Virus genome (UHGV): UHGV-0280588
Length of the DNA: 10,694 bases
Direction: 5' to 3' (one strand)
Origin: a virus
The notes under the pieces were generated by a model. It did no database searches and was not told where the DNA came from. It saw nothing but the letters and a program-made list of their open reading frames with translations. A program made the translations under genes and the position numbers. The stretch's first letter is position 1. Each line of letters begins with the position of its first letter. Positions 929 to 10,660 of this stretch are shown here, piece by piece.

Positions 929-3376
929 TTAACCGTCATGCATCATGCTGGCACGGGCGCGCACACGTTTATCCCGCTCGTATTTTTCGAGCGCATCCTG
1001 TAACTGGCGGTCAAGCTGTGTCCCCGGCGCAGTACCACCCGTCAGGCTGATGTGATATTCGTTTTTACTCTGGTCCACATAAGAGCGGCCAGCCGGTGCC
1101 GTGACCGGCTGATAAGCCTGATAGCCTGCATAAGAGCTGGTCGCCGGAATATAACCACCGGTGCCATACGTGGCGGCATGAGTTCTGGCGGCGGTCTGGT
1201 CAAGTGTGTCTGACTCTTTGTTGATAACACCGAGTTTTTCCAGTACCCAGTCAATACCGCTGCGCAGTTTGTTGAACGCATTAAGCGGCAGCATCAGCGC
1301 GTCAGCCAGTGCCTGCCCGAACATGACGCCCGTGTCACGGCAACGGTTCAGGGTGTCCTGTGTGGCTTTAACCGGAGCAATCAGGTTTGTAAACCACTGC
1401 CACGCGGCCTGTAACTTTTCGCCCAGCCAGTCAAACACCGGCTTAAGTGGCGTGAACAGCTCCCCCACCGGCGCAAATGCCGCTTTCAGCCCTTCAACCA
1501 CACCGCCAAAGAATGCGCTGACAGGCTCCCAGTATTTACGGATAAGCAACGCCCCGGCGACAATGGCAGCCACCACGGCCACAACCGGCCAGCTAATCGC
1601 ACCGATGGCCGTCATAACGGCACTACCAACCGTCGTGAAGATTGCCCCCATTGCGCCTGCTGCCGCGATAATGGCATTGATGCCGGTGATAACCGGCCAG
1701 GCTACAAGGCCAATGGCACCGATGATGCCAGTCAGCGCCAGTGCACCGCCGGCAATGATGCCGATGGTTGACGCCAGTGATTTGTTTTTCTGTATCCAGC
1801 CGTCGAGTTTTAACACATACTTTGTGGCCGTCTGCGTGAGCTTACGCAGCGCGCCTTCCTGCTGGTCAAACAGGTCAGTCCCCACAGCCTCATAAGCGGA
1901 CTGAAACTCCTTAAAGTCACCGCCGAGGTTATCCTGCATGATTTTAACCAGCTCTTCCGTTTTACTGTCCGAGGCTTTCAGCGTGGCGGTCAGCGTATCC
2001 AGTTTTCCGCTTGCTGCCGCTGCCAGTAAAACGTTCGCTGATTTCAGGGCTTCCTCACCAAAAATGGTTTTAAGGTATTCCCCCTTCTGAGACGTTCCCA
2101 GCTTGTGTTTATCAAAGCTGGCCTGAATCTCTTTCAGAATGGTGAACAACGGACGCATATTTCCCTTTTTGTCCGAGGTTTTAACGCCAAGCTCTTTGAG
2201 TGCATCCCATGCTTTTCCAGTCGGAGCCTGTAATCGGGTGACAACGGCACTACTACCCGTACCCGCCATTGACCCCCTGATGTTATTGTCATGCAGCACA
2301 CCGGTCATGGCTGCTGCCTGCTCAAGACTTACACCTGCCGTTCTTGCGACCGGACCGAGGTAAGTCAGTGCATCACTGAGTCCCTGAAAATCAGCCGCCG
2401 ACTTATTCATCGTTGCCGACAACACGTCGCCCACATGGCTGACATCATCATTTGACAGTTGAAAGGATGCCTTAGTCCCCAGCAACAGTTGCGCGTTTTC
2501 TTCCATCGACCGCTGATTCGCCAGCGCCATATTCAGCGTGACCGGCGTTGCCGCCTGAATGGCATCAACATCCCCACCCGCTTTCGCGATGATTATCTGT
2601 GCACCGGCCGCATCATCCGCCGAGGCGGCGGTATTGTCGCCGAGCTGGCGCGCCTGTTTGCGTAGTGCGGTCATTTCGGCGGAGTCTTTTGCCACTCCGA
2701 GCACGGCCTGCAATTCTGAGTTTTTCTGCGCAAACTCATAACCGGGCATCAGCAACTTAACTCCGGCCATCGTTCCCGCCGCCGCAATCCCCACACCGGC
2801 AGCGCCCACTGAGGCCATATTTCCGGCCAGTTCCTTTCCGGCCTGATAACGCTGTTTTACTGCGTTAAGTTTTGCCTGTTGCGCACTGACACGCGCCAGC
2901 GCGTCACGCTGACGGTTAAGCTGTGCGGTGGTTTCACTGATACGATTTTTCAGTCCCTGCTCATCATGTGCAAGATTGCGGGTATTAATTCCCACAGCGG
3001 CCAGTTCCCGCTGCTGGCGTTTAACGGAATCCGTCAGGCGGTTATATTTCGCCTGTAAGTCCTCCGCCGCACGCTTTGCGGATTCCAGCACTTTCGCCTG
3101 AGCACGGGTCGGACGTTCGGTGTTTTTAAACTGTGTGGCAAGGGCTTCGGCCTCCTGCCGTGCCTTTTCAAGTGCATGACCAGTTACGGCGAGCTGTGCA
3201 CTGGTCTTGCGAAATCCCTCAATACGGGATGCGTGACCGTTCAGCTCGCGCAGTGATTTTTGTGTTTCCCGGATATCCCCCGACAGCGACCTGCTCGCTG
3301 TGCGGATGGATTTAAACGGGCGGGATGCCTGGTCAACAGCCCTGAGCAATACCTGTAATTTTACATTGTTACTCAT
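929..3376 (-). CDS. T: Tail tape measure protein (gpT-like)
   Basis: 815-aa ORF with a coiled-coil-like N-terminal half (many Q/R/A/L/E), a long Gly/Ala/Ile-rich hydrophobic block (IGIIAGGALALTGIIGAIGLVAWPVITGINAIIAAAGAMGAIFTTVGSAV...) and a C-terminal region, typical of tape measure proteins. Lies directly after E/E' as in P2. Confidence 0.92.
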   Translation of the reverse strand: MSNNVKLQVLLRAVDQASRPFKSIRTASRSLSGDIRETQKSLRELNGHASRIEGFRKTSAQLAVTGHALEKARQEAEALATQFKNTERPTRAQAKVLESAKRAAEDLQAKYNRLTDSVKRQQRELAAVGINTRNLAHDEQGLKNRISETTAQLNRQRDALARVSAQQAKLNAVKQRYQAGKELAGNMASVGAAGVGIAAAGTMAGVKLLMPGYEFAQKNSELQAVLGVAKDSAEMTALRKQARQLGDNTAASADDAAGAQIIIAKAGGDVDAIQAATPVTLNMALANQRSMEENAQLLLGTKASFQLSNDDVSHVGDVLSATMNKSAADFQGLSDALTYLGPVARTAGVSLEQAAAMTGVLHDNNIRGSMAGTGSSAVVTRLQAPTGKAWDALKELGVKTSDKKGNMRPLFTILKEIQASFDKHKLGTSQKGEYLKTIFGEEALKSANVLLAAAASGKLDTLTATLKASDSKTEELVKIMQDNLGGDFKEFQSAYEAVGTDLFDQQEGALRKLTQTATKYVLKLDGWIQKNKSLASTIGIIAGGALALTGIIGAIGLVAWPVITGINAIIAAAGAMGAIFTTVGSAVMTAIGAISWPVVAVVAAIVAGALLIRKYWEPVSAFFGGVVEGLKAAFAPVGELFTPLKPVFDWLGEKLQAAWQWFTNLIAPVKATQDTLNRCRDTGVMFGQALADALMLPLNAFNKLRSGIDWVLEKLGVINKESDTLDQTAARTHAATYGTGGYIPATSSYAGYQAYQPVTAPAGRSYVDQSKNEYHISLTGGTAPGTQLDRQLQDALEKYERDKRVRARASMMHDG

Positions 3377-3796
3377 TCGTGTTTCCGCTTCGCCGGAGCG
3401 CCTTTTCGCGCCATGTGATGAGTTCGGTCAGGCTCATGGGATACAGTTCTGATGGCGGCCAGTGAAATATCACTGCCACATCCGCCATCAGGTCATCGAC
3501 CGAGAGATTTTTCGGAAACGTCACTGCACCGAGTTCGGCGACAAAAAACCAACCACCTTACCGGCCAGCGCCACAAGGTCAGGCAGCTCCAGTGCGGCAA
3601 CCTCCTGCTCGGTCAGCATCGGTGCCGTCATGCGCGGCAGCACTTTAATCAGTGCATCGACTTCGGAGTTCGCGACCGCAGCCAGACTGACACCGCGCAG
3701 CGTCCCGGCACTGGGTTTCATCAGCGTGACCTGTTCGATAACCTGCTCACCACGCTTGACCGGATTGTCCAGGGTAATCACATTTTCTTTGTTCAT
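3369..3796 (-). CDS. E': Tail assembly chaperone E+E' made by -1 programmed ribosomal frameshift
   Basis: Slipping -1 at T_TTT_TTG (minus strand, 3548-3542) continues as VAELGAVTFPKNLSVDDLMADVAVIFHWPPSELYPMSLTELITWREKALRRSGNTNE (57 codons) to TAA at 3371-3369, overlapping the tape measure ATG (3376-3374). This is the arrangement reported for P2 E/E' and for lambda G/GT. Confidence 0.78.
3521..3796 (-). CDS. E: Tail assembly chaperone E (gpE-like), frame-0 product
   Basis: 91-aa ORF MNKENVITLDNPVKRGEQVIEQVTLMKPSAGTLRGV...AGKVVGFLSPNSVQ between the tube gene and the tape measure gene; small acidic chaperone in the position of P2 E. Confidence 0.88.
   Translation of the reverse strand: MNKENVITLDNPVKRGEQVIEQVTLMKPSAGTLRGVSLAAVANSEVDALIKVLPRMTAPMLTEQEVAALELPDLVALAGKVVGFLSPNSVQ
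3542..3548 (-). promoter_or_regulatory. Slippery heptamer T_TTT_TTG for the E/E' -1 frameshift
   Basis: Plus strand 3541-3550 is acaaaaaacc, so the minus strand reads GGT TTT TTG in the E frame; the -1 frame is open for 57 codons from here. Confidence 0.75.
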
Positions 3797-3852: not shown

Positions 3853-4371
3853 TCACAGGCCGATATTGCGGCGGTGTTGCTCCAGCCGGTCGACGCCGTT
3901 CACCTTCTCAATCATGTTGATGGTGTCGATTTCGACCAGCTCCTTACCGTCCATCGTCAGCCGGAAATAGGTGCAGACCACGGAGATTTTCGACTCGGTG
4001 TCTTCTCCCTGTTTCCCCTCGCCGGTGTCGATTTCTTTCTGACGTCCACGCATGACCACTTCAACGGCCACCGTTTCGCCGGTATCGTCACGCTGGTAAG
4101 AGCCAGCAAAACGAATCGGCACGGCATCCACACCGGTTGCGGCGTAAAGCTCCCAGATAACCGAATCCGGGAAGCCCCCGAGCGACCACTCCATTGACAG
4201 CGCATCGTCATCAAGGCCGAGGTCTACCGGTGCGCTTCCGTTCATCCCCGCACCGCGATAGTTTTCGAGTTTACGGGTCAGTTTTGGCAGCGTGACGGAC
4301 TTTGCAACGCCCTGATAGCTGTAGCCGTTCAGAAAGACGTTCATTAACTTGAGTTTGCGCGGCATTGCCAT
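3853..4371 (-). CDS. FII: Tail tube protein (gpFII-like)
   Basis: 172-aa ORF MAMPRKLKLMNVFLNGYSYQGVAKSVTLPKLTRKLENYRGAGMNGSAPVDLGLDD... directly downstream of the sheath gene (12-bp gap); matches contractile-tail tube proteins of the P2 FII family. Confidence 0.92.
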   Translation of the reverse strand: MAMPRKLKLMNVFLNGYSYQGVAKSVTLPKLTRKLENYRGAGMNGSAPVDLGLDDDALSMEWSLGGFPDSVIWELYAATGVDAVPIRFAGSYQRDDTGETVAVEVVMRGRQKEIDTGEGKQGEDTESKISVVCTYFRLTMDGKELVEIDTINMIEKVNGVDRLEQHRRNIGL

Positions 4372-4383
4372 CGGTCAGGCTCC

Positions 4384-5574
4384 TTAATTGCTGTTAACCG
4401 AGGTGACCAGATTTGCCAGGTATTTATCGGTAATACGCTGGCGCAGGGTCAGGTTTTCAAGAGGAGGCACCGGAGTATAGTCGTAGTCGATATACAGTTT
4501 TCCGGCCTTAAGGGTTTCCGCATCGTTGGATTCTTCGCTGAACCAGCAGGTCGCATCCACGATATAGCCGTTTGTTTTCAGCTCACGGAATTTGGCATTG
4601 ATGCCGTCAACGATGTCGCGAATCAGCGTTGCGGTGATGGGCTTGTCCACCGCCCACATGTGCGCCTCAGCCATCGTGTCGGCCAGCACCTGCGCGGTGC
4701 GGGTGTAGTTTTCAAAGAGGAACAGCGGGTCATCAGAGCAGGTACGGTTACCCCAGAAGCGGAAACCGTCGCGGCGAATCAGCGTTGTGACGCCTGACTC
4801 GTTAAGCAGGTCAGCATCGGTGCCGGACTCCTGCAAATCCCAGAATACAGAGGCGCTGATGCCGGTAACACCGTTCACCCCGACATTGGACAGCGTTTTA
4901 TGCCAGCCCTGCTCCTGGTCAATTCTGGCTCGCAGACCCAGCGCACGGGCGGTGGCATATGCGGTGGCGGTGGTACTGGTGACCGTATCCCATGCGAGGA
5001 AATCCGGCCAGATGACCATCAGCTCACGCTGGCTGAAATTCTGGCGGTAGGCTTTCACCTCGGAAATGGTCTTACAGCCCCATGCGCTGATATATCCGAA
5101 AGCGCGCAGCTTCTGACAGACTGATGCCAGTGCAACAGCCACCTCTTTGGTATCCAGCCCCGGCACACCAAGAATACGCGGTTTAACACCGGTTACCGAC
5201 TCTGCCGCCAGCAGAGCTTTCAGTCCGGTGTACTGACCATTTTCGTCGGTGGTGCCGATGATATTGGAAACGGTCTGCGCGAGTTTCGTTTCTTCGTCGT
5301 CGCCGGTGCCGTCTTCCACACGCACGACAACGGTGACCGGTTTTGACTGGTCAGCGATGGCCTGCAGCGACGCCGCCAGCGTGCCTTTTTTACCGGCCTT
5401 TGCAATTGCGCTCTGCACATTGGTAATCAGCACCGGTTTATTGAGGGGGAAGATTTCCGCATCCGCATCGCTGGCCGTGCAGACCATGCCGACAATGGCG
5501 GTGGATACGGTGGAAATGACGCGGGTGCCGTCGTTAATCTCCAGCACCTGCACGCCGTGATGATAGTCACTCAT
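4384..5574 (-). CDS. FI: Tail sheath protein (gpFI-like)
   Basis: 396-aa ORF MSDYHHGVQVLEINDGTRVISTVSTAIVGMVCTASDAD...; N-terminus and length match P2-type sheath proteins; followed by tube, E/E', T, U, D in P2 order. Confidence 0.93.
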   Translation of the reverse strand: MSDYHHGVQVLEINDGTRVISTVSTAIVGMVCTASDADAEIFPLNKPVLITNVQSAIAKAGKKGTLAASLQAIADQSKPVTVVVRVEDGTGDDEETKLAQTVSNIIGTTDENGQYTGLKALLAAESVTGVKPRILGVPGLDTKEVAVALASVCQKLRAFGYISAWGCKTISEVKAYRQNFSQRELMVIWPDFLAWDTVTSTTATAYATARALGLRARIDQEQGWHKTLSNVGVNGVTGISASVFWDLQESGTDADLLNESGVTTLIRRDGFRFWGNRTCSDDPLFLFENYTRTAQVLADTMAEAHMWAVDKPITATLIRDIVDGINAKFRELKTNGYIVDATCWFSEESNDAETLKAGKLYIDYDYTPVPPLENLTLRQRITDKYLANLVTSVNSN

Positions 5575-5633
5575 CCGTTTAACTCCGTGGTTAATGGGTG
5601 AGTGGTATTTTCAGTTGTGCCGGAGATGTCAGG

Positions 5634-6227
5634 CTATTTGTCCCGGTTGGCTAAGGGATGACACAATTTATTCTTTGTCGCTGATGAGGGGAATTTTTTA
5701 TAGAGCGTGGACAGGCCAATATCAAAAATCAGCGCCACACGTTGACGAGATTCCCCCGCAGCCAGCAACCGTCCGACCTGCTCCCACTCACTCGCGGTGA
5801 GTTTCGGACGTCTGCCACCAATACGGCCTTTGGCTCTGGCCGCTTCCAGTCCGGCGCGTGTCCGCTCGACAATGAGTTCTCGTTCCATTTCAGCCAGGGC
5901 ACCCATCACATGAAAGAAAAAACGCCCCATCGGCGTGCTGGTATCAATAGCATCCGTCAGGCTGCGAAAATTAATGCCGCGTTCGCGCAGTTCCTCAACC
6001 AGAATGACCAGATGCCGCATACTACGCCCCAGCCTGTCCAGCTTCCAGACCACCAGAGTGTCACCTGCTGATAATGTTCTGAGCAGTTTTTTCAGTCCCG
6101 GTCGGTCGGACTTCGTGCCGCTGATTTTATCCTCAAAAATCAGCTCACATCCTGCGCACTCCAGCGCGTTACGCTGCAATTCCGTGTTCTGGTCATTTGT
6201 TGACACGCGTACATAGCCAATAAGCAT
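5634..6227 (-). CDS. pin: Serine DNA invertase, Gin/Pin/Hin/Cin family
   Basis: Translation MLIGYVRVSTNDQNTELQRNALECAGCELIFEDKISGTKSDRPGLKKLLRTLSAGDTLVVWKLDRLGRSMRHLVILVEELRERGINFRSLTDAIDTSTPMGRFFFHVMGALAEMERELIVERTRAGLEAARAKGRIGGRRPKL... carries the catalytic YVRVST serine motif and is near-identical in pattern to Gin/Pin as I recall them. Start set at the second ATG (6227-6225), which aligns with the MLIGYVRV start of homologues and has AGGGGGA well spaced upstream; the track's start at 6233 adds two residues. Confidence 0.92.
   Translation of the reverse strand: MLIGYVRVSTNDQNTELQRNALECAGCELIFEDKISGTKSDRPGLKKLLRTLSAGDTLVVWKLDRLGRSMRHLVILVEELRERGINFRSLTDAIDTSTPMGRFFFHVMGALAEMERELIVERTRAGLEAARAKGRIGGRRPKLTASEWEQVGRLLAAGESRQRVALIFDIGLSTLYKKFPSSATKNKLCHPLANRDK
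6120..6144. promoter_or_regulatory. Candidate recombinational enhancer / Fis-binding palindrome inside the 5' part of pin
   Basis: gctgatttt (6120-6128) and aaaatcagc (6136-6144) are exact reverse complements around a 7-bp spacer, with G...C ends and an AT-rich centre like Fis sites. It lies about 85-105 bp into the invertase gene, where Hin/Gin/Cin enhancers are located. Confidence 0.3.
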
Positions 6228-6282
6228 GAGCATCCCCCTGAATAAAAACCGGAGATGATGCCACTTGCCCGTTATCTATGCA

Positions 6283-6308
6283 TTTTCATAAACGTTGGTT
6301 TGGGAGAA
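6283..6308. promoter_or_regulatory. Invertase crossover site (gix/hix-like, pin-proximal)
   Basis: TTTTCATAAACG TT GGTTTGGGAGAA, a 12+2+12 site closely resembling hixL (TTCTTGAAAACC AA GGTTTTTGATAA as recalled). The inner half-site plus 9 further bases (6295-6315, ttggtttgggagaagccagat) recur in inverted orientation at 7731-7751. Confidence 0.72.
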
Positions 6309-6989
6309 GCCAGATTCTCTGGTCGTTTGTTAAACACGAATATTTTTAAAAGCTCTGGAAAATATATCCCAACACCAGGGACAAAAAAGATAAGGGTCAT
6401 TGCCTCTGGTGGCGGTGGCGGCGGCGGTGGGGTTCCTGAAACAACAGAAAATCAGCAGGCAACAGCCGGAGCTGGATTGAGCGGCGCATTTATTGAAGCA
6501 TTTTTCGAGGTTGATAATGATTTCGAAGTCAACGTTATTATCGGTGCTGCAGGTAAAGGTGGGGGAGCCGGAAGAAATTCAGGTAGTGAAGGTGGCACAA
6601 CTTATTTCGGTTCCATGATAACTGCACCTGGTGGTACAGGCGGTGGCGCGGGGGGAGCATCTGCAAACACATCATATATTCAGGGTATTTCATGGGGTGC
6701 CAGTCCGACATCGTCCGGTACTGTACTAAGAGCATTTCGCTGTAGTGCAAAAACACCAGGAGCAATGGTTATCTCTGTTAAAGCTGTAGCAGGTGGTACC
6801 GGGGGGGATACACCATTAGGTTCAGGCGGTATAGGTGGTGCAAGTTCTTCATCATTCAGCGGACGTGGTGGTGGTAAAGCTGAGGGCTTTGGTGCTGGCG
6901 GAGGCGGAGCCTGCGCACCTGCTGGAAGTGAGGCTCAATCGGGAGGTGACGGTGCCCCGGGAATAGTTATTGTTGAGGAGTATGCCTGA
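6297..6989 (+). CDS. Silent alternative tail-fibre C-terminal cassette, glycine-rich (230 aa), expressed only after inversion
   Basis: Plus-strand frame GLGEARFSGRLLNTNIFKSSGKYIPTPGTKKIRVIASGGGGGGGGVPE...GAPGIVIVEEYA shares the crossover-encoded GLGEAR with the H constant part in the same codon phase (junction codon xTT at both sites). Part of track ORF 6255-6989, whose ATG lies outside the segment. Confidence 0.72.
   Translation, partial: GLGEARFSGRLLNTNIFKSSGKYIPTPGTKKIRVIASGGGGGGGGVPETTENQQATAGAGLSGAFIEAFFEVDNDFEVNVIIGAAGKGGGAGRNSGSEGGTTYFGSMITAPGGTGGGAGGASANTSYIQGISWGASPTSSGTVLRAFRCSAKTPGAMVISVKAVAGGTGGDTPLGSGGIGGASSSSFSGRGGGKAEGFGAGGGGACAPAGSEAQSGGDGAPGIVIVEEYA
6408..6431 (+). repeat. 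(GGY)8 trinucleotide run encoding Gly8
   Basis: GGT GGC GGT GGC GGC GGC GGT GGG read directly from the sequence, inside the glycine-rich cassette. Confidence 0.9.
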
Positions 6990-7255
6990 TGAGTAATTTT
7001 GCTCTGATTGAACATGGCGTGGTGAAAAATATTATTATCTGGGATGGAGAGGGGGATTTATTCTCTAATTGCGAAATTATAAATATTGATCATATAGATG
7101 CAGGCGTCGGTTGGTTCTATTCTGACGGAGAGTTTATAGCACCACCGGAACCGGAAATGACTGAATATGATGTTGGTAATATCGACGCGGTGATGGAAGC
7201 AGATACCAGCACCGCGCCGGGGGTTATCTGGCCAGTTCCACCTGAGATGGTTTAA
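6989..7255 (+). CDS. Putative short tail-fibre assembly/chaperone protein for the glycine-rich cassette
   Basis: 88-aa ORF whose ATG overlaps the cassette stop (ATGA). C-terminus ...DTSTAPGVIWPVPPEMV resembles the conserved C-terminal motif of lambda Tfa as I recall it (...RVDTSTAPDIEWPAVPVME). Much shorter than typical Tfa/gpG/U proteins (about 175-195 aa). Confidence 0.5.
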   Translation: MSNFALIEHGVVKNIIIWDGEGDLFSNCEIINIDHIDAGVGWFYSDGEFIAPPEPEMTEYDVGNIDAVMEADTSTAPGVIWPVPPEMV

Positions 7256-7511
7256 TCTCAATCAGAATGGGTTCGCCCTTCTCGTTAACAGATATTTCCA
7301 TTCCTTCAGGGATTTCAGATGCAGTAAAAAACCAGTTATCTTCTGGTAATTCCACAGCCCCGGTCACGTCATGAAGACCGGGGATTACTTCAGTCAAAGT
7401 AACAGGATTAAACAGGCGCACAATAAACTCTCCAGGAAAAAGCACTTGTTGATGGTCTTCCGTCGTACATCTGGCAGCGGACATAAAAACCTGTATTACT
7501 GACCTGGTCAT
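7224..7511 (-). CDS. Uncertain small ORF, possibly a tail-fibre assembly/chaperone protein for the current fibre variant; start not resolved
   Basis: 95-aa frame MTRSVIQVFMSAARCTTEDHQQVLFPGEFIVRLFNPVTLTEVIPGLHDVTGAVELPEDNWFFTASEIPEGMEISVNEKGEPILIEIKPSQVELAR. It overlaps the 3' end of H (stop at 7408-7410) in another frame; the ATG starts at 7511 and 7484 overlap by 104 and 77 nt, and in-frame GTG codons at 7445 and 7421 would give shorter overlaps. Its 3' end overlaps the plus-strand ORF by 32 bp. Confidence 0.35.
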   Translation of the reverse strand: MTRSVIQVFMSAARCTTEDHQQVLFPGEFIVRLFNPVTLTEVIPGLHDVTGAVELPEDNWFFTASEIPEGMEISVNEKGEPILIEIKPSQVELAR

Positions 7512-8799
7512 CCACGATCATTGAAACGTGAACGTTATTAGGTGTGGCCTCGTAATCTGTTCTTATTCTTTCCGCTATGCTGATAAAACGTGAAAGTTTA
7601 GGTAGTGCAATTGGATAAACGACTTTAGCCAGCCCATTATCATTGGAACCACCAGTTCCAAATACTTCTATTGCACCATCTGACCAGCGTATCCATGCAC
7701 CATTGACATTAGCTCCTCGCTGAATGACATATCTGGCTTCTCCCAAACCAAGGTATGCGAGAAGACCAGCAACATCCTTTCCACTCAAATTAGTCAGCGT
7801 ATTGTCCAGCGGTTGTTTGCCTGCCAGTGCATTAAGCACTGTTGTTGAAAAGTTAGGGTCATTCCCCAGCGCCGCCGCCAGTTCATTCAGTGTATCCAGT
7901 GCCGCAGGGGCAGAACCCACCATTGCCGCAATTGCTGATTTCACAAAAGCCGTGGTAGCAATCTGTGTATTGTTGACCGACTGTGCCGCCGTAGGTGCTG
8001 TTGGCGTTCCGGTAAGTGCGGGACTCGACAGCGGCGCTTTCAGCGCCAGCGTATTGTTAATGGTGGTACTGAATTTCGGGTCATTATTAATGGCTGCGGC
8101 AATTTCTTTCAGTGTGTCCAGCGTGGCTGGCGCACCGTTAATCAGAGCAGTAATAGCAGCCTGTACAAACGCAGTGGTCGCAATCCGCGTGGTGTTATTT
8201 CCTGCGGCAGGCGTCGGCGCTTTTGGTTCTCCGGTAAATGTCGGATTATGTTTCTGTGCATACTGGGTATGAGGATCCTGTGCGGCAATGTGGTTTCTCA
8301 TCTGGTCATCCACATAAAGCTTTAATTCCAGGACTTCATCATCCACGTATTTACGGGTCGCCAGTACCACCGACGGGTCGATTTTCAGCGTGATGGCTTC
8401 GGTATTCGTGACAACCAGAATCATGCGGATAGTCTGGGTACGACCGCTGCCTTCCTGCAACTGCGGTTTGTACGTTTCCGGGCAGTTCGCCACCGCAATG
8501 AGTACGCCTTCATCATCATAAAGCCCAATCTCACGGATCCAGAATCCGCCCTCGTTCTCAGGGATGATTTGCTCCGCAATAATCTGGCTCTGGTTGTTCG
8601 GGTCAACACTCAGAAGATTCAGCGGCGCAATGCGTTTCTGGTTAATCAGTTTTGTCTGTGCCGGGTCTGGTGTCGGCAAGACACCATTCGCATCACCAAC
8701 GGCCATTTGCGTCAGATTCAGCTTACTGCCGAGCATCGTCGCGTTAGCCAGCCGTGCTGCGCCCTGATTAGTCAGAATGGCGTAGTATTTCACTGTCAT
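7408..8799 (-). CDS. H: Tail fibre protein (gpH-like), current orientation: constant part 8799-7752, variable C-terminus 7749-7408
   Basis: 463-aa ORF; N-terminal domain MTVKYYAILTNQGAARL...MAVGD...GGFWIREIGLYDDEGVLIAVAN...YVDD is the conserved baseplate-attachment domain of P2 H / Mu S / P1 S type fibres, followed by two shaft repeats, then LGLGEAR at the crossover site and a 107-aa variable tail. ATG overlaps the gpI stop. Confidence 0.9.
   Translation of the reverse strand: MTVKYYAILTNQGAARLANATMLGSKLNLTQMAVGDANGVLPTPDPAQTKLINQKRIAPLNLLSVDPNNQSQIIAEQIIPENEGGFWIREIGLYDDEGVLIAVANCPETYKPQLQEGSGRTQTIRMILVVTNTEAITLKIDPSVVLATRKYVDDEVLELKLYVDDQMRNHIAAQDPHTQYAQKHNPTFTGEPKAPTPAAGNNTTRIATTAFVQAAITALINGAPATLDTLKEIAAAINNDPKFSTTINNTLALKAPLSSPALTGTPTAPTAAQSVNNTQIATTAFVKSAIAAMVGSAPAALDTLNELAAALGNDPNFSTTVLNALAGKQPLDNTLTNLSGKDVAGLLAYLGLGEARYVIQRGANVNGAWIRWSDGAIEVFGTGGSNDNGLAKVVYPIALPKLSRFISIAERIRTDYEATPNNVHVSMIVDDQVSNTGFYVRCQMYDGRPSTSAFSWRVYCAPV
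7738..7763. promoter_or_regulatory. Invertase crossover site (gix/hix-like, fibre-proximal), inside the H coding sequence
   Basis: TTCTCCCAAACC AA GGTATGCGAGAA on the plus strand; inner half-site identical to the reverse complement of the inner half of the 6283-6308 site, and the central dinucleotides (AA here, TT there) are complementary as inverted repeats require. Encodes LGLGEA of the fibre. Confidence 0.72.
7806..8244 (-). repeat. Diverged tandem duplication (2 units of about 219 bp, about 73 aa) in the tail-fibre shaft
   Basis: Protein repeats PTFTGEPKAPTPAAGNNTTRIATTAFVQAAITALINGAPATLDTLKEIAAAINNDPKFSTTINNTLALKA and PALTGTPTAPTAAQSVNNTQIATTAFVKSAIAAMVGSAPAALDTLNELAAALGNDPNFSTTVLNALAGKQ; also visible in the antisense plus-strand ORF 7724-8272. 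Boundaries are approximate. Confidence 0.7.
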
Positions 8800-9407
8800 G
8801 CGTTTACTCTCAGGTTATCAATTAAATGAATGGCCGAGGCCGGGAAATAATCCCCTCCGACAATAATGGCCTCCGGGGTGTAGGGATAAACCGTCAGGGC
8901 GTCACCGTGATAGCATCCCGCACCGGCAAAAATGTTGCCGGTTGTACTTAAACTGATAGCCAGTCCCGTCAGATGGCGGCTTGCCGGTTTGGCATCAGCA
9001 ACGAGGCGCTCCAGCTCCTGATACATTTCCTCGGTAATACCCTGCTCAAGCACGCCGACAACGATACGGAACGTCCCCGGCTCCTCGTTGAGCTGCCACC
9101 ACTCCCTCACCTCAATCAGATAGCCGAGTGGCTCCACCACACGGCGAATCGCACCAATAGTGCCCTTATGGCAGTGAATGAAATACGCATCGCGGATAAC
9201 AGCGCGTTTTGTCGCTTCCGGCCACTTATCATCCCAGCGGTCAACCGAAAATGACCACGCCAGCCACGGCAGCAGATTTGCCGGGCAGGTGTCCGGGTTC
9301 CACAGCTCACGAATACTGACCGGCGTTTTTTCAATTTCCGCACAGGCTTTTGCGGCGGCGACTTCAAGCGGTGATGAGCCAGTCGGCAGCAGTCGCGAAT
9401 CACTCAT
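8796..9407 (-). CDS. I: Baseplate assembly protein I (gpI-like)
   Basis: 203-aa ORF MSDSRLLPTGSSPLEVAAAKACAEIEKTPVSIRELWNPDTCPANLLPWLAWSF... between J and H; 3' end overlaps the H start. Confidence 0.85.
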   Translation of the reverse strand: MSDSRLLPTGSSPLEVAAAKACAEIEKTPVSIRELWNPDTCPANLLPWLAWSFSVDRWDDKWPEATKRAVIRDAYFIHCHKGTIGAIRRVVEPLGYLIEVREWWQLNEEPGTFRIVVGVLEQGITEEMYQELERLVADAKPASRHLTGLAISLSTTGNIFAGAGCYHGDALTVYPYTPEAIIVGGDYFPASAIHLIDNLRVNA

Positions 9408-10308
9408 CCGAGCCTCCGGTCACGACGCTGTATTCGGTGCAGAAAGACGCCTGCATACTGTTGAGCACGATGTCAGCCAGCGGTGCAGCCAGTTCGACAC
9501 GCTGCACGCCTTCCACATGCAAAGCGGCATAAATGGCAGACAGACGGATGTCGCGCCCCAGCCGGTGCTGTGCCGTGATGTACGCTTCCAGTTTTTTCAC
9601 GGCGGCGGCGCGGATGGGTTCGCTTTCGGGACCAGGGTAAAGGTAAAGCGTGGCGTTTATCTGGTATTCAACAATGGCGGCAGACTGCACGGTCACGCGG
9701 TCGGCCACCGGCCTGACGTCCTCGCCATTAAGGGCGTTACGCACCACGGCCAGCAGGTCTTCGGATGCGACACCGTTATTTTCACGTGACAGCACAGAGA
9801 TGGTGACGCAGGCCGGAGACGGACTGGTGACAGAAATATCCGCGACACGCCCGTCAGCACTGCGACCATGATACTGATAGGCTCCCACCGACCCGGCGAC
9901 GCTTAAGCCCTCAAACGCCTGCTGAATACGCAGACGATAATCGGTGTCAGACTCCATCACTGCCGGTGTCGGCGGGATAGTCGAATCATCTGCCGGGGTG
10001 ATAGTCAGGCGCGTGGTGTTGTAATTGGCACCAATCACATCAAGGTCATTACCGGCAGCACAGGCCAGCATTACCGCCCGTGCGGCCTCATTCACACGCT
10101 GACGCCAGATAAGCTCGCGATAAGCATTTTCCTCCAGCAGTTTGACGAGAGGCTCGGATTCCAGCGTCAGGGTACGGGCGACCGCCTCCTGCTGGTCTTC
10201 CGGGTAAAGGGAAATCAGTGTCGCCTTGCGTTCGGCAAGAATGGTTTCAAAGTCCAGCTCCTCGACCACATCCGGTGCAGGTAGCTGGTTCAGGTCGATA
10301 ATCGGCAT
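9400..10308 (-). CDS. J: Baseplate assembly protein J (gpJ-like)
   Basis: 302-aa ORF MPIIDLNQLPAPDVVEELDFETILAERKATLISLYPEDQQEAVARTLTLESEPLVKLLEENAYRELIWRQRVNEAARAV...; size and position between W and I match P2 gpJ. Overlaps the gpI start by 8 nt. Confidence 0.9.
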   Translation of the reverse strand: MPIIDLNQLPAPDVVEELDFETILAERKATLISLYPEDQQEAVARTLTLESEPLVKLLEENAYRELIWRQRVNEAARAVMLACAAGNDLDVIGANYNTTRLTITPADDSTIPPTPAVMESDTDYRLRIQQAFEGLSVAGSVGAYQYHGRSADGRVADISVTSPSPACVTISVLSRENNGVASEDLLAVVRNALNGEDVRPVADRVTVQSAAIVEYQINATLYLYPGPESEPIRAAAVKKLEAYITAQHRLGRDIRLSAIYAALHVEGVQRVELAAPLADIVLNSMQASFCTEYSVVTGGSDE

Positions 10309-10312
10309 GGTT

Positions 10313-10660
10313 TCAACTCACAGGGATGGTTAACGAAAGTGGCTGGCCGGTGTCGTTGTGCTGGCCGGTTAACGTAACTGTCATTCGCCCGTCAAAACTG
10401 CGCGCCGTGGTGACGGATGACAGGGTGACGCGGGGTTCCCATTTCAGCACTGCCATGTAACAGGCAACCTTAATCTGCAACTCAAGCGCCGGGGTCTGCG
10501 GCTGGTCAATCATTGACGCCAGCAACGAGCCGTAATCACGACGCATCACCCGTGAGCCGACCGGTGTGCGCAGGATATCGCCGATACTCTGGCTGATATG
10601 CTCAAGGTCAGTGACAATCAGGCCATCACTGCGATTCATTCCGAGATAACGCGCTGTCAT
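10313..10660 (-). CDS. W: Baseplate protein W (gpW-like)
   Basis: 115-aa ORF MTARYLGMNRSDGLIVTDLEHISQSIGDILRTPVGSRVMRRDYGSLLASMIDQPQTPALELQIKVACYMAVLKWEPRVTL...; small baseplate protein directly upstream of J. Confidence 0.88.
   Translation of the reverse strand: MTARYLGMNRSDGLIVTDLEHISQSIGDILRTPVGSRVMRRDYGSLLASMIDQPQTPALELQIKVACYMAVLKWEPRVTLSSVTTARSFDGRMTVTLTGQHNDTGQPLSLTIPVS

Follow-up and report, generated by a model that had tools for sequence, protein, structure and literature searches.

Our data indicate that the sheath operon of this P2-like prophage keeps an ordinary P2 late promoter, pF, and that the promoter that had seemed missing or odd appears to have been a wrong inference. We analyzed a window of 10,694 nucleotides, the whole stretch of UHGV virus genome UHGV-0280588 considered here. 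In the explanation that we favor as a whole, with a probability of roughly 90%, positions 5575 to 5671 represent pF, a Mu/e14-type cassette occupies the Z/fun hotspot next to it, and pin, the invertase gene of that cassette, would be transcribed from a weak promoter of its own. The anomaly disappears once the window is compared with the actual P2 promoter rather than with an idealized consensus. Little is at stake in this correction beyond the removal of the anomaly itself: a late operon seemingly without a promoter has one.

Gene layout of the window

The window holds the late tail region of a P2-like prophage, with all genes of this region on the minus strand; features below are likewise on the minus strand unless stated otherwise. 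In the direction of transcription these are W (10313-10660), J (9400-10308), I (8796-9407), the tail-fiber gene H (7408-8799), the serine DNA invertase gene pin (5634-6227, 197 amino acids plus stop), FI (4384-5574, an open reading frame [ORF] of 396 amino acids), FII (3853-4371), E (3521-3796), T (929-3376), and U (435-914). FI, the first gene of the F operon, encodes the tail sheath; its product matched the Pfam families Phage_sheath_1, Phage_sheath_1C, and Gp18_domIII_N, and the gene is approximately 96% to 98% identical in nucleotide sequence to FI genes of the P2 family. The pin stop codon TAG occupies 5636-5634 and the FI start codon ATG begins at 5574, leaving a gap of 59 bp (5575-5633), exactly as the first-pass annotation had measured it. 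The window contains no match to any Rfam family. The window ends inside D and contains no activator gene; a 99.6%-identical prophage in Escherichia coli NCTC9040 carries ogrK just after D, together with a pV site of exact consensus.

The predicted activator site of the sheath-operon promoter lies within the 3' end of pin

Among phage records, P2 relatives lacking pin match the window in megablast comparisons only up to approximately 5654-5666, so P2 homology resumes within the 3' end of pin. From 5654 to the FI ATG, a gapless comparison with the annotated P2 pF revealed a single base difference over 83 bases. The P2 reference record (NC_001895) annotates an "activator binding site; activation of pF promoter" at 17555-17583, an F-operon start at 17626-17628, and the FI ATG at 17652, placing the start 24 to 26 nt before the ATG. 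By transferring these coordinates by homology, we predict an Ogr-type activator binding site at 5643-5671, the position-for-position equivalent of the NC_001895 site, containing a core partial dyad TGT-N12-CCA (5665-5648) centered 57.5 nt before the predicted start. The -10 element GAAAATA (5606-5612) is identical to that of P2 pF, and the predicted F-operon transcription start (CAC, 5598-5600) lies where the window and P2 are again identical. The FI ribosome-binding site GGAG (5583-5586), read directly from the sequence, precedes the ATG by 8 nt.

This arrangement is what would be expected of a P2 late promoter. A partial dyad of the TGT-N12-ACA type is expected about 55 nt upstream of the start, and here, counting from the transferred start, it is found at 57.5 nt; the -10 element stands at the conserved distance from the first late gene, and there is no consensus -35. 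The predicted activator site (5671-5643) falls wholly within the last 12 codons of pin, and its sequence, TTGTGTCATCCCTTAGCCAACCGGGAC, is strikingly like that of pO, TTGTGTCAGTGATAAGCCATCCGGGAC. The first-pass annotation had considered a promoter embedded in pin in a noncanonical form. By homology to the annotated promoter and start, comparison with P2 late promoters places an Ogr-type promoter between 5575 and 5700, which counts against the dependence on readthrough that the same annotation had offered as its alternative; the activator site is indeed inside pin, but the promoter is an ordinary pF.

The exact pattern TGT-N12-ACA, which had been sought in vain between pin and FI and at the 3' end of pin, has no match anywhere in the window. 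The premise that P2 pF carries it does not hold, however, as the annotated P2 site (NC_001895) is GGTGGTTGTGCTGTCGATTAGCCAACCGG, that is, TGT-N12-CCA centered 57.5 nt from the start, the same form that we find at 5665-5648. The site shared by P2 pO and pP, TTGTGTCAGTGATAAGCCATCCGGGA, is also TGT-N12-CCA, centered 55.5 nt from the start, and the pV activator site of P2 (NC_001895, 10239-10266) reads TGT-N11-ACA. In fact, no activator site annotated in the P2 reference record matches TGT-N12-ACA exactly. Since pV has N11 in P2 and the exact TGT-N12-ACA in the NCTC9040 prophage, the spacing of the dyad is not strictly fixed within the P2 family. A search allowing one mismatch does locate 5648-5665, yet it returned 49 matches in the window against 49.3 expected. 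Because such matches occur at the number expected by chance, the motif alone is without power, and the identification rests on homology. Exact-pattern searches with the textbook TGT-N12-ACA will miss genuine late promoters.

Conservation upstream of FI supplies a second line of evidence. We collected 80 FI loci from assemblies labeled as approximately 80 species, nearly all Enterobacterales, and aligned the 116 bp upstream of FI (81 unique sequences). TTGT and the -10 element GA[A/C]AATA are each kept at a fixed position in at least 90% of the unique sequences and CCAAC, also at a fixed position, in 70% to 90%, and the FI ribosome-binding site ACGGAGTTAAACGGATG is 80% to 99% conserved. Strong conservation across the approximately 80 species extends to AAATAGC, a box located at about -38 to -32 of pF (5632-5640 in the window). 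This box, which to our knowledge is absent from textbook accounts of P2 late promoters, contains the TAG stop codon of pin. A few of the loci come from assemblies labeled Chryseobacterium sp. 18061, Vagococcus sp. WN89Y, and Sporobacter termitidis (the last a metagenome-assembled genome [MAG]), all of them names that fall outside the Enterobacterales. They encode enterobacterial P2-type FI proteins (81% to 90% protein identity) with typical pF regions, and FI genes under such labels probably come from contaminated or misbinned assemblies.

Considering these data, we propose a model for expression of the sheath operon, in which we infer dependence on an Ogr-type activator from the homology of its site. 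A zinc-finger activator of the Ogr type, whose gene would lie elsewhere in the prophage, would bind the partial dyad at 5665-5648 and recruit RNA polymerase to a promoter that has the -10 element GAAAATA and no recognizable -35. Transcription of the F operon would then begin at about 5600-5598, 24 to 26 nt before the FI ATG, and pF would serve the tail operon FI-FII-E-T-U-D. The cassette of invertible fiber segment, crossover site, and pin sits in the Z/fun hotspot with its right-hand junction immediately upstream of the pF dyad; because of this junction, the pin frame runs on through the activator site, to a stop inside the conserved AAATAGC box.

The pin gene and its product

The pin ORF extends over 5634-6233, and its second in-frame ATG, at 6227, gives the canonical MLIGYVRVS start and a product of 197 amino acids; RefSeq uses the same start for pin in the 99.6%-identical prophage. 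The two in-frame ATGs (6233 and 6227) are two codons apart, and e14 pinE has the second only. A GGGGGA ribosome-binding site at 6238-6233 is sensibly spaced with respect to the 6227 ATG only, as opposed to the one at 6233. Pin is a member of the Hin/Gin/Cin/Pin family, with a Resolvase catalytic domain (Pfam, 4e-52), the YVRVSTNDQ motif, and a C-terminal HTH_7 domain (5e-13), and it shares 79% amino acid identity with Cin and 79% with D108 Gin.

The HTH_7 domain ends at residue 181, and residues 182 to 197 form a tail beyond it, the last 12 codons and stop of which overlie pF DNA. The C-terminal tails of invertases from the different lineages among the pin-bearing loci compared are unrelated to each other in sequence, which suggests that the tail arises incidentally as the reading frame continues through promoter DNA.

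In the Gin and Hin systems, the recombinational enhancer sits within the invertase gene. The 5' part of pin contains a Fis-consensus motif, GCGCAGGATGTGAGC (6143-6157), that fits GNNYRNNWNNYRNNC and has a conserved counterpart in D108 gin, GTGCAGGATGTGAAC, making it a candidate part of such an enhancer; a second Fis site was not clearly identified. Outside the gene, GCATAGATAACGGGC (6267-6281), located downstream of the crossover site and upstream of the candidate pin -10 element, also fits the Fis consensus and may do so by chance.

Crossover sites and the invertible segment

The proximal 26-bp crossover site, TTCTCCCAAACC-AA-CGTTTATGAAAA, lies at 6283-6308 (minus strand, core AA at 6296-6295) and has the same sequence as the site that precedes e14 pinE. 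The distal site, TTCTCCCAAACC-AA-GGTATGCGAGAA, lies within H at 7738-7763 on the plus strand. The two are thus inverted with the same core AA and flank alternative fiber C termini, as in other systems of this invertase family. They are embedded in inverted repeat arms (6283-6315 and 7731-7763) that are 85% complementary with 1,415 nt between them, and GLGEAR is encoded at both segment junctions. The distance from the proximal site to the pin ATG at 6227 is 55 bp, in agreement with the approximate value given previously.

The invertible segment (6296-7750) is compact, about 1.45 kb, and a Gly_rich_2 domain (6296-6989, plus strand) forms one of the alternative fiber tips. It also contains two accessory ORFs, one of 88 amino acids (6989-7255, plus strand) and one of 95 amino acids (7224-7511, minus strand), the latter sharing 104 nt with the end of H. 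These short ORFs have no Pfam match and are unlike the usual tail-fiber assembly proteins of 150 to 200 amino acids in pro483, e14, or Mu. A 17-nt GC-rich inverted repeat, 94% complementary, has one arm inside the segment (6416-6432, Gly codons) and the other in constant H (7864-7880, Ala-Ala-Ala-Leu-Gly codons); it is probably a chance outcome of codon composition.

A candidate pin promoter and possible autoregulation

An alignment of the sequences upstream of the invertase start revealed that TGGCAT is invariant in the window, pro483, e14 pinE, D108 gin, Kluyvera, Scandinavium, and Siccibacter. In the window it is found at 6263-6258, about 30 nt before the start codon, and this distance is fixed across the invertase genes compared. 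The conserved box forms part of an extended -10-like element, TGGCATCAT (TGgCATCAT, 6255-6263), and pin is most likely expressed from this weak extended -10 promoter, with a start predicted at about 6247-6250. This point is new; neither the Mu nor the D108 record annotates a gin promoter, and a literature search for the cin, pin, gin, or hin promoter matched only unrelated papers. A consensus scan of 5400-7900 returned no sigma-70 promoter on the minus strand. A sigma-54 reading of TGGCAT was rejected upon inspection, as no GC element occurs at the required spacing of 10 nt.

The proximity of the pin promoter to the crossover site raises the possibility that Pin represses its own gene, the promoter overlapping the site to which the invertase binds. 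Hin is reported to regulate its own expression at hixL. With the -10 element at 6260-6255, the crossover site would span approximately -34 to -59, abutting the -35 region and covering the upstream contacts of RNA polymerase, and the same spacing is found in e14 pinE, D108 gin, pro483, and Kluyvera. On the other hand, the conserved -10-like element itself begins 19 bp downstream of the crossover site and is clear of it, the -35 region contributes little to an extended -10 promoter, and in the Siccibacter loci the site and TGGCAT are 20 bp farther apart, so that a tight overlap of site and promoter is not universal. Autoregulation of pin by invertase binding is thus plausible, although on balance we are inclined to doubt that the promoter is repressed in this way.

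Terminators and possible readthrough into the sheath operon

Whatever the regulation of pin, its transcripts would meet little to stop them before FI. No intrinsic terminator was detected between pin and FI, a scan of 5400-7900 yielding only weak, near-chance terminator-like matches, and the RNA of 5720-5575 has no stable fold (z = +1.25 versus shuffles). As neither a terminator nor a stable fold is present in this interval, pF is not insulated from upstream transcription. The relatives differ in this respect: in about 50 of 75 pin-less loci, the terminator scan found a strong terminator ending a few to approximately 25 nt (mostly 5 to 15 nt) upstream of the pF dyad, whereas in the seven pin-bearing loci there is no convincing one, only two weak hairpins inside the invertase coding sequence. 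Loci bearing pin lack a terminator near pF, then, and readthrough from pin may add to pF activity, a point that we believe to be new.

These observations also bear on an explanation in which the sheath operon has no working promoter and is expressed entirely by readthrough, either from pin or from the V-W-J-I-H operon by way of the invertible segment and pin, a dependence that the first-pass annotation had entertained for pin. The open path from pin to FI speaks for such an explanation, and so does the contrast between most pin-less relatives, with their terminators just upstream of pF, and the pin-bearing loci. It is nevertheless very improbable, given an intact pF that is one base away from P2 over 83 bp with all conserved elements present; because of this intact promoter, readthrough would be a supplement and not a requirement. 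An ordinary, working pF remains our preferred reading.

A related and rather unlikely scenario, offered tentatively, is that the cassette replaced a terminator that had insulated pF, such that the constitutive pin transcript and late transcripts of the V operon enter the sheath operon while Ogr and RNA polymerase occupy the end of pin, coupling the expression of the two. If this is true, lysogens might contain low-level sheath and tube transcripts, or full-length pin mRNA might be shut off late. That prophages with pin lack this insulating terminator is a small point on how hotspot cargo becomes wired into phage late transcription.

The Z/fun hotspot and spread of the arrangement

In P2 (NC_001895), gene G is followed by the V-operon terminator, the nonessential fun(Z) gene on the opposite strand, and pF. 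The earlier proposal that pin stands in the place of gene G and of its late promoter is at odds with this order, as pF is retained, P2 has fun(Z) at this place, and the fiber-accessory ORFs are inside the invertible segment. Hence, pin occupies the known P2 Z/fun hotspot and not the place of gene G. A recent survey found that this hotspot often encodes a DNA invertase, along with inverted neighboring genes, and inversion in P2-like prophages of enteropathogenic E. coli (EPEC) has been demonstrated by sequencing.

The arrangement is common. Approximately 900 of 5,426 complete E. coli genomes contain at least 80% of a query covering 5575-6320, and the same 59-bp pin-FI junction is present in the phage records pro483, S164, and MET_P1_103_31. 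At six further species-level loci (two in Siccibacter, one in Scandinavium, two in Kluyvera, and one in Pseudocitrobacter), the invertase ORF ends 61 to 64 bp before FI and enters the region of the pF activator site. An exact TGT-N12-[A/C]CA dyad overlapped by the invertase ORF was found in four of these six, and a variant right half of the dyad in the three Scandinavium and Kluyvera loci. The pin-pF arrangement is thus ordinary, widespread, and already described.

That the pF-like sequence is a decayed remnant, its promoter inactivated when the incoming pin cassette took over the upstream half of the activator site, is far-fetched, for although nucleotide homology to reference P2 stops within the dyad (at approximately 5654-5666), the TGT is still present, the left half of the dyad in the window (TTGTGTCATCCC, versus TTGTGCTGTCGA in reference P2) fits pO (TTGTGTCA) and the cross-species consensus TTGTG[CT]CATCC, the same junction recurs in those E. 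coli and phage genomes, and invertase ORFs overlap an intact dyad in independent lineages.

Comparison with known systems

The closest reference for the promoter is P2 itself, whose pF shares with the window the TGT-N12-CCA form, the -10 element, and the distance to FI, in addition to the near identity described above. The upstream half of the dyad differs, the window being nearer to pO and to other P2-family pF variants, and so does the surrounding DNA: pF is preceded by a terminator and fun(Z) in P2, whereas in the window the 3' end of pin extends over its activator site. The closest match for the whole locus is provided by pro483 and related phages and prophages, which have the same order of H, invertible segment, invertase, 59-bp gap, and FI, with 96% to 98% nucleotide identity across pin and FI. 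The content of their invertible segments is different; in the window the segment is compact (1.45 kb), the alternative tip is a Gly_rich_2 domain, and the accessory ORFs are short.

Among the fiber-switching systems outside the P2 family, P1 Cin belongs to the same invertase family as Pin and plays the same role. Nevertheless, in P1 and D6, the crossover site cixL and the 3' end of cin overlap, and the gene is directed toward the segment, a topology opposite to that of the Mu, e14, and P2-type loci. Mu and D108 gin and e14 pinE are more similar, just like the window presenting a fiber segment, a crossover site, approximately 55 to 66 bp, and an invertase gene on the same strand, and the TGGCAT box is common to the window, D108 gin, and e14 pinE. 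What lies beyond the invertase sets them apart. The gin gene is followed by com-mom and pinE by mcrA, whereas in the window a late structural operon adjoins the invertase gene, and, unlike at the gin and pinE loci, the invertase ORF enters the activator site of that neighboring operon.
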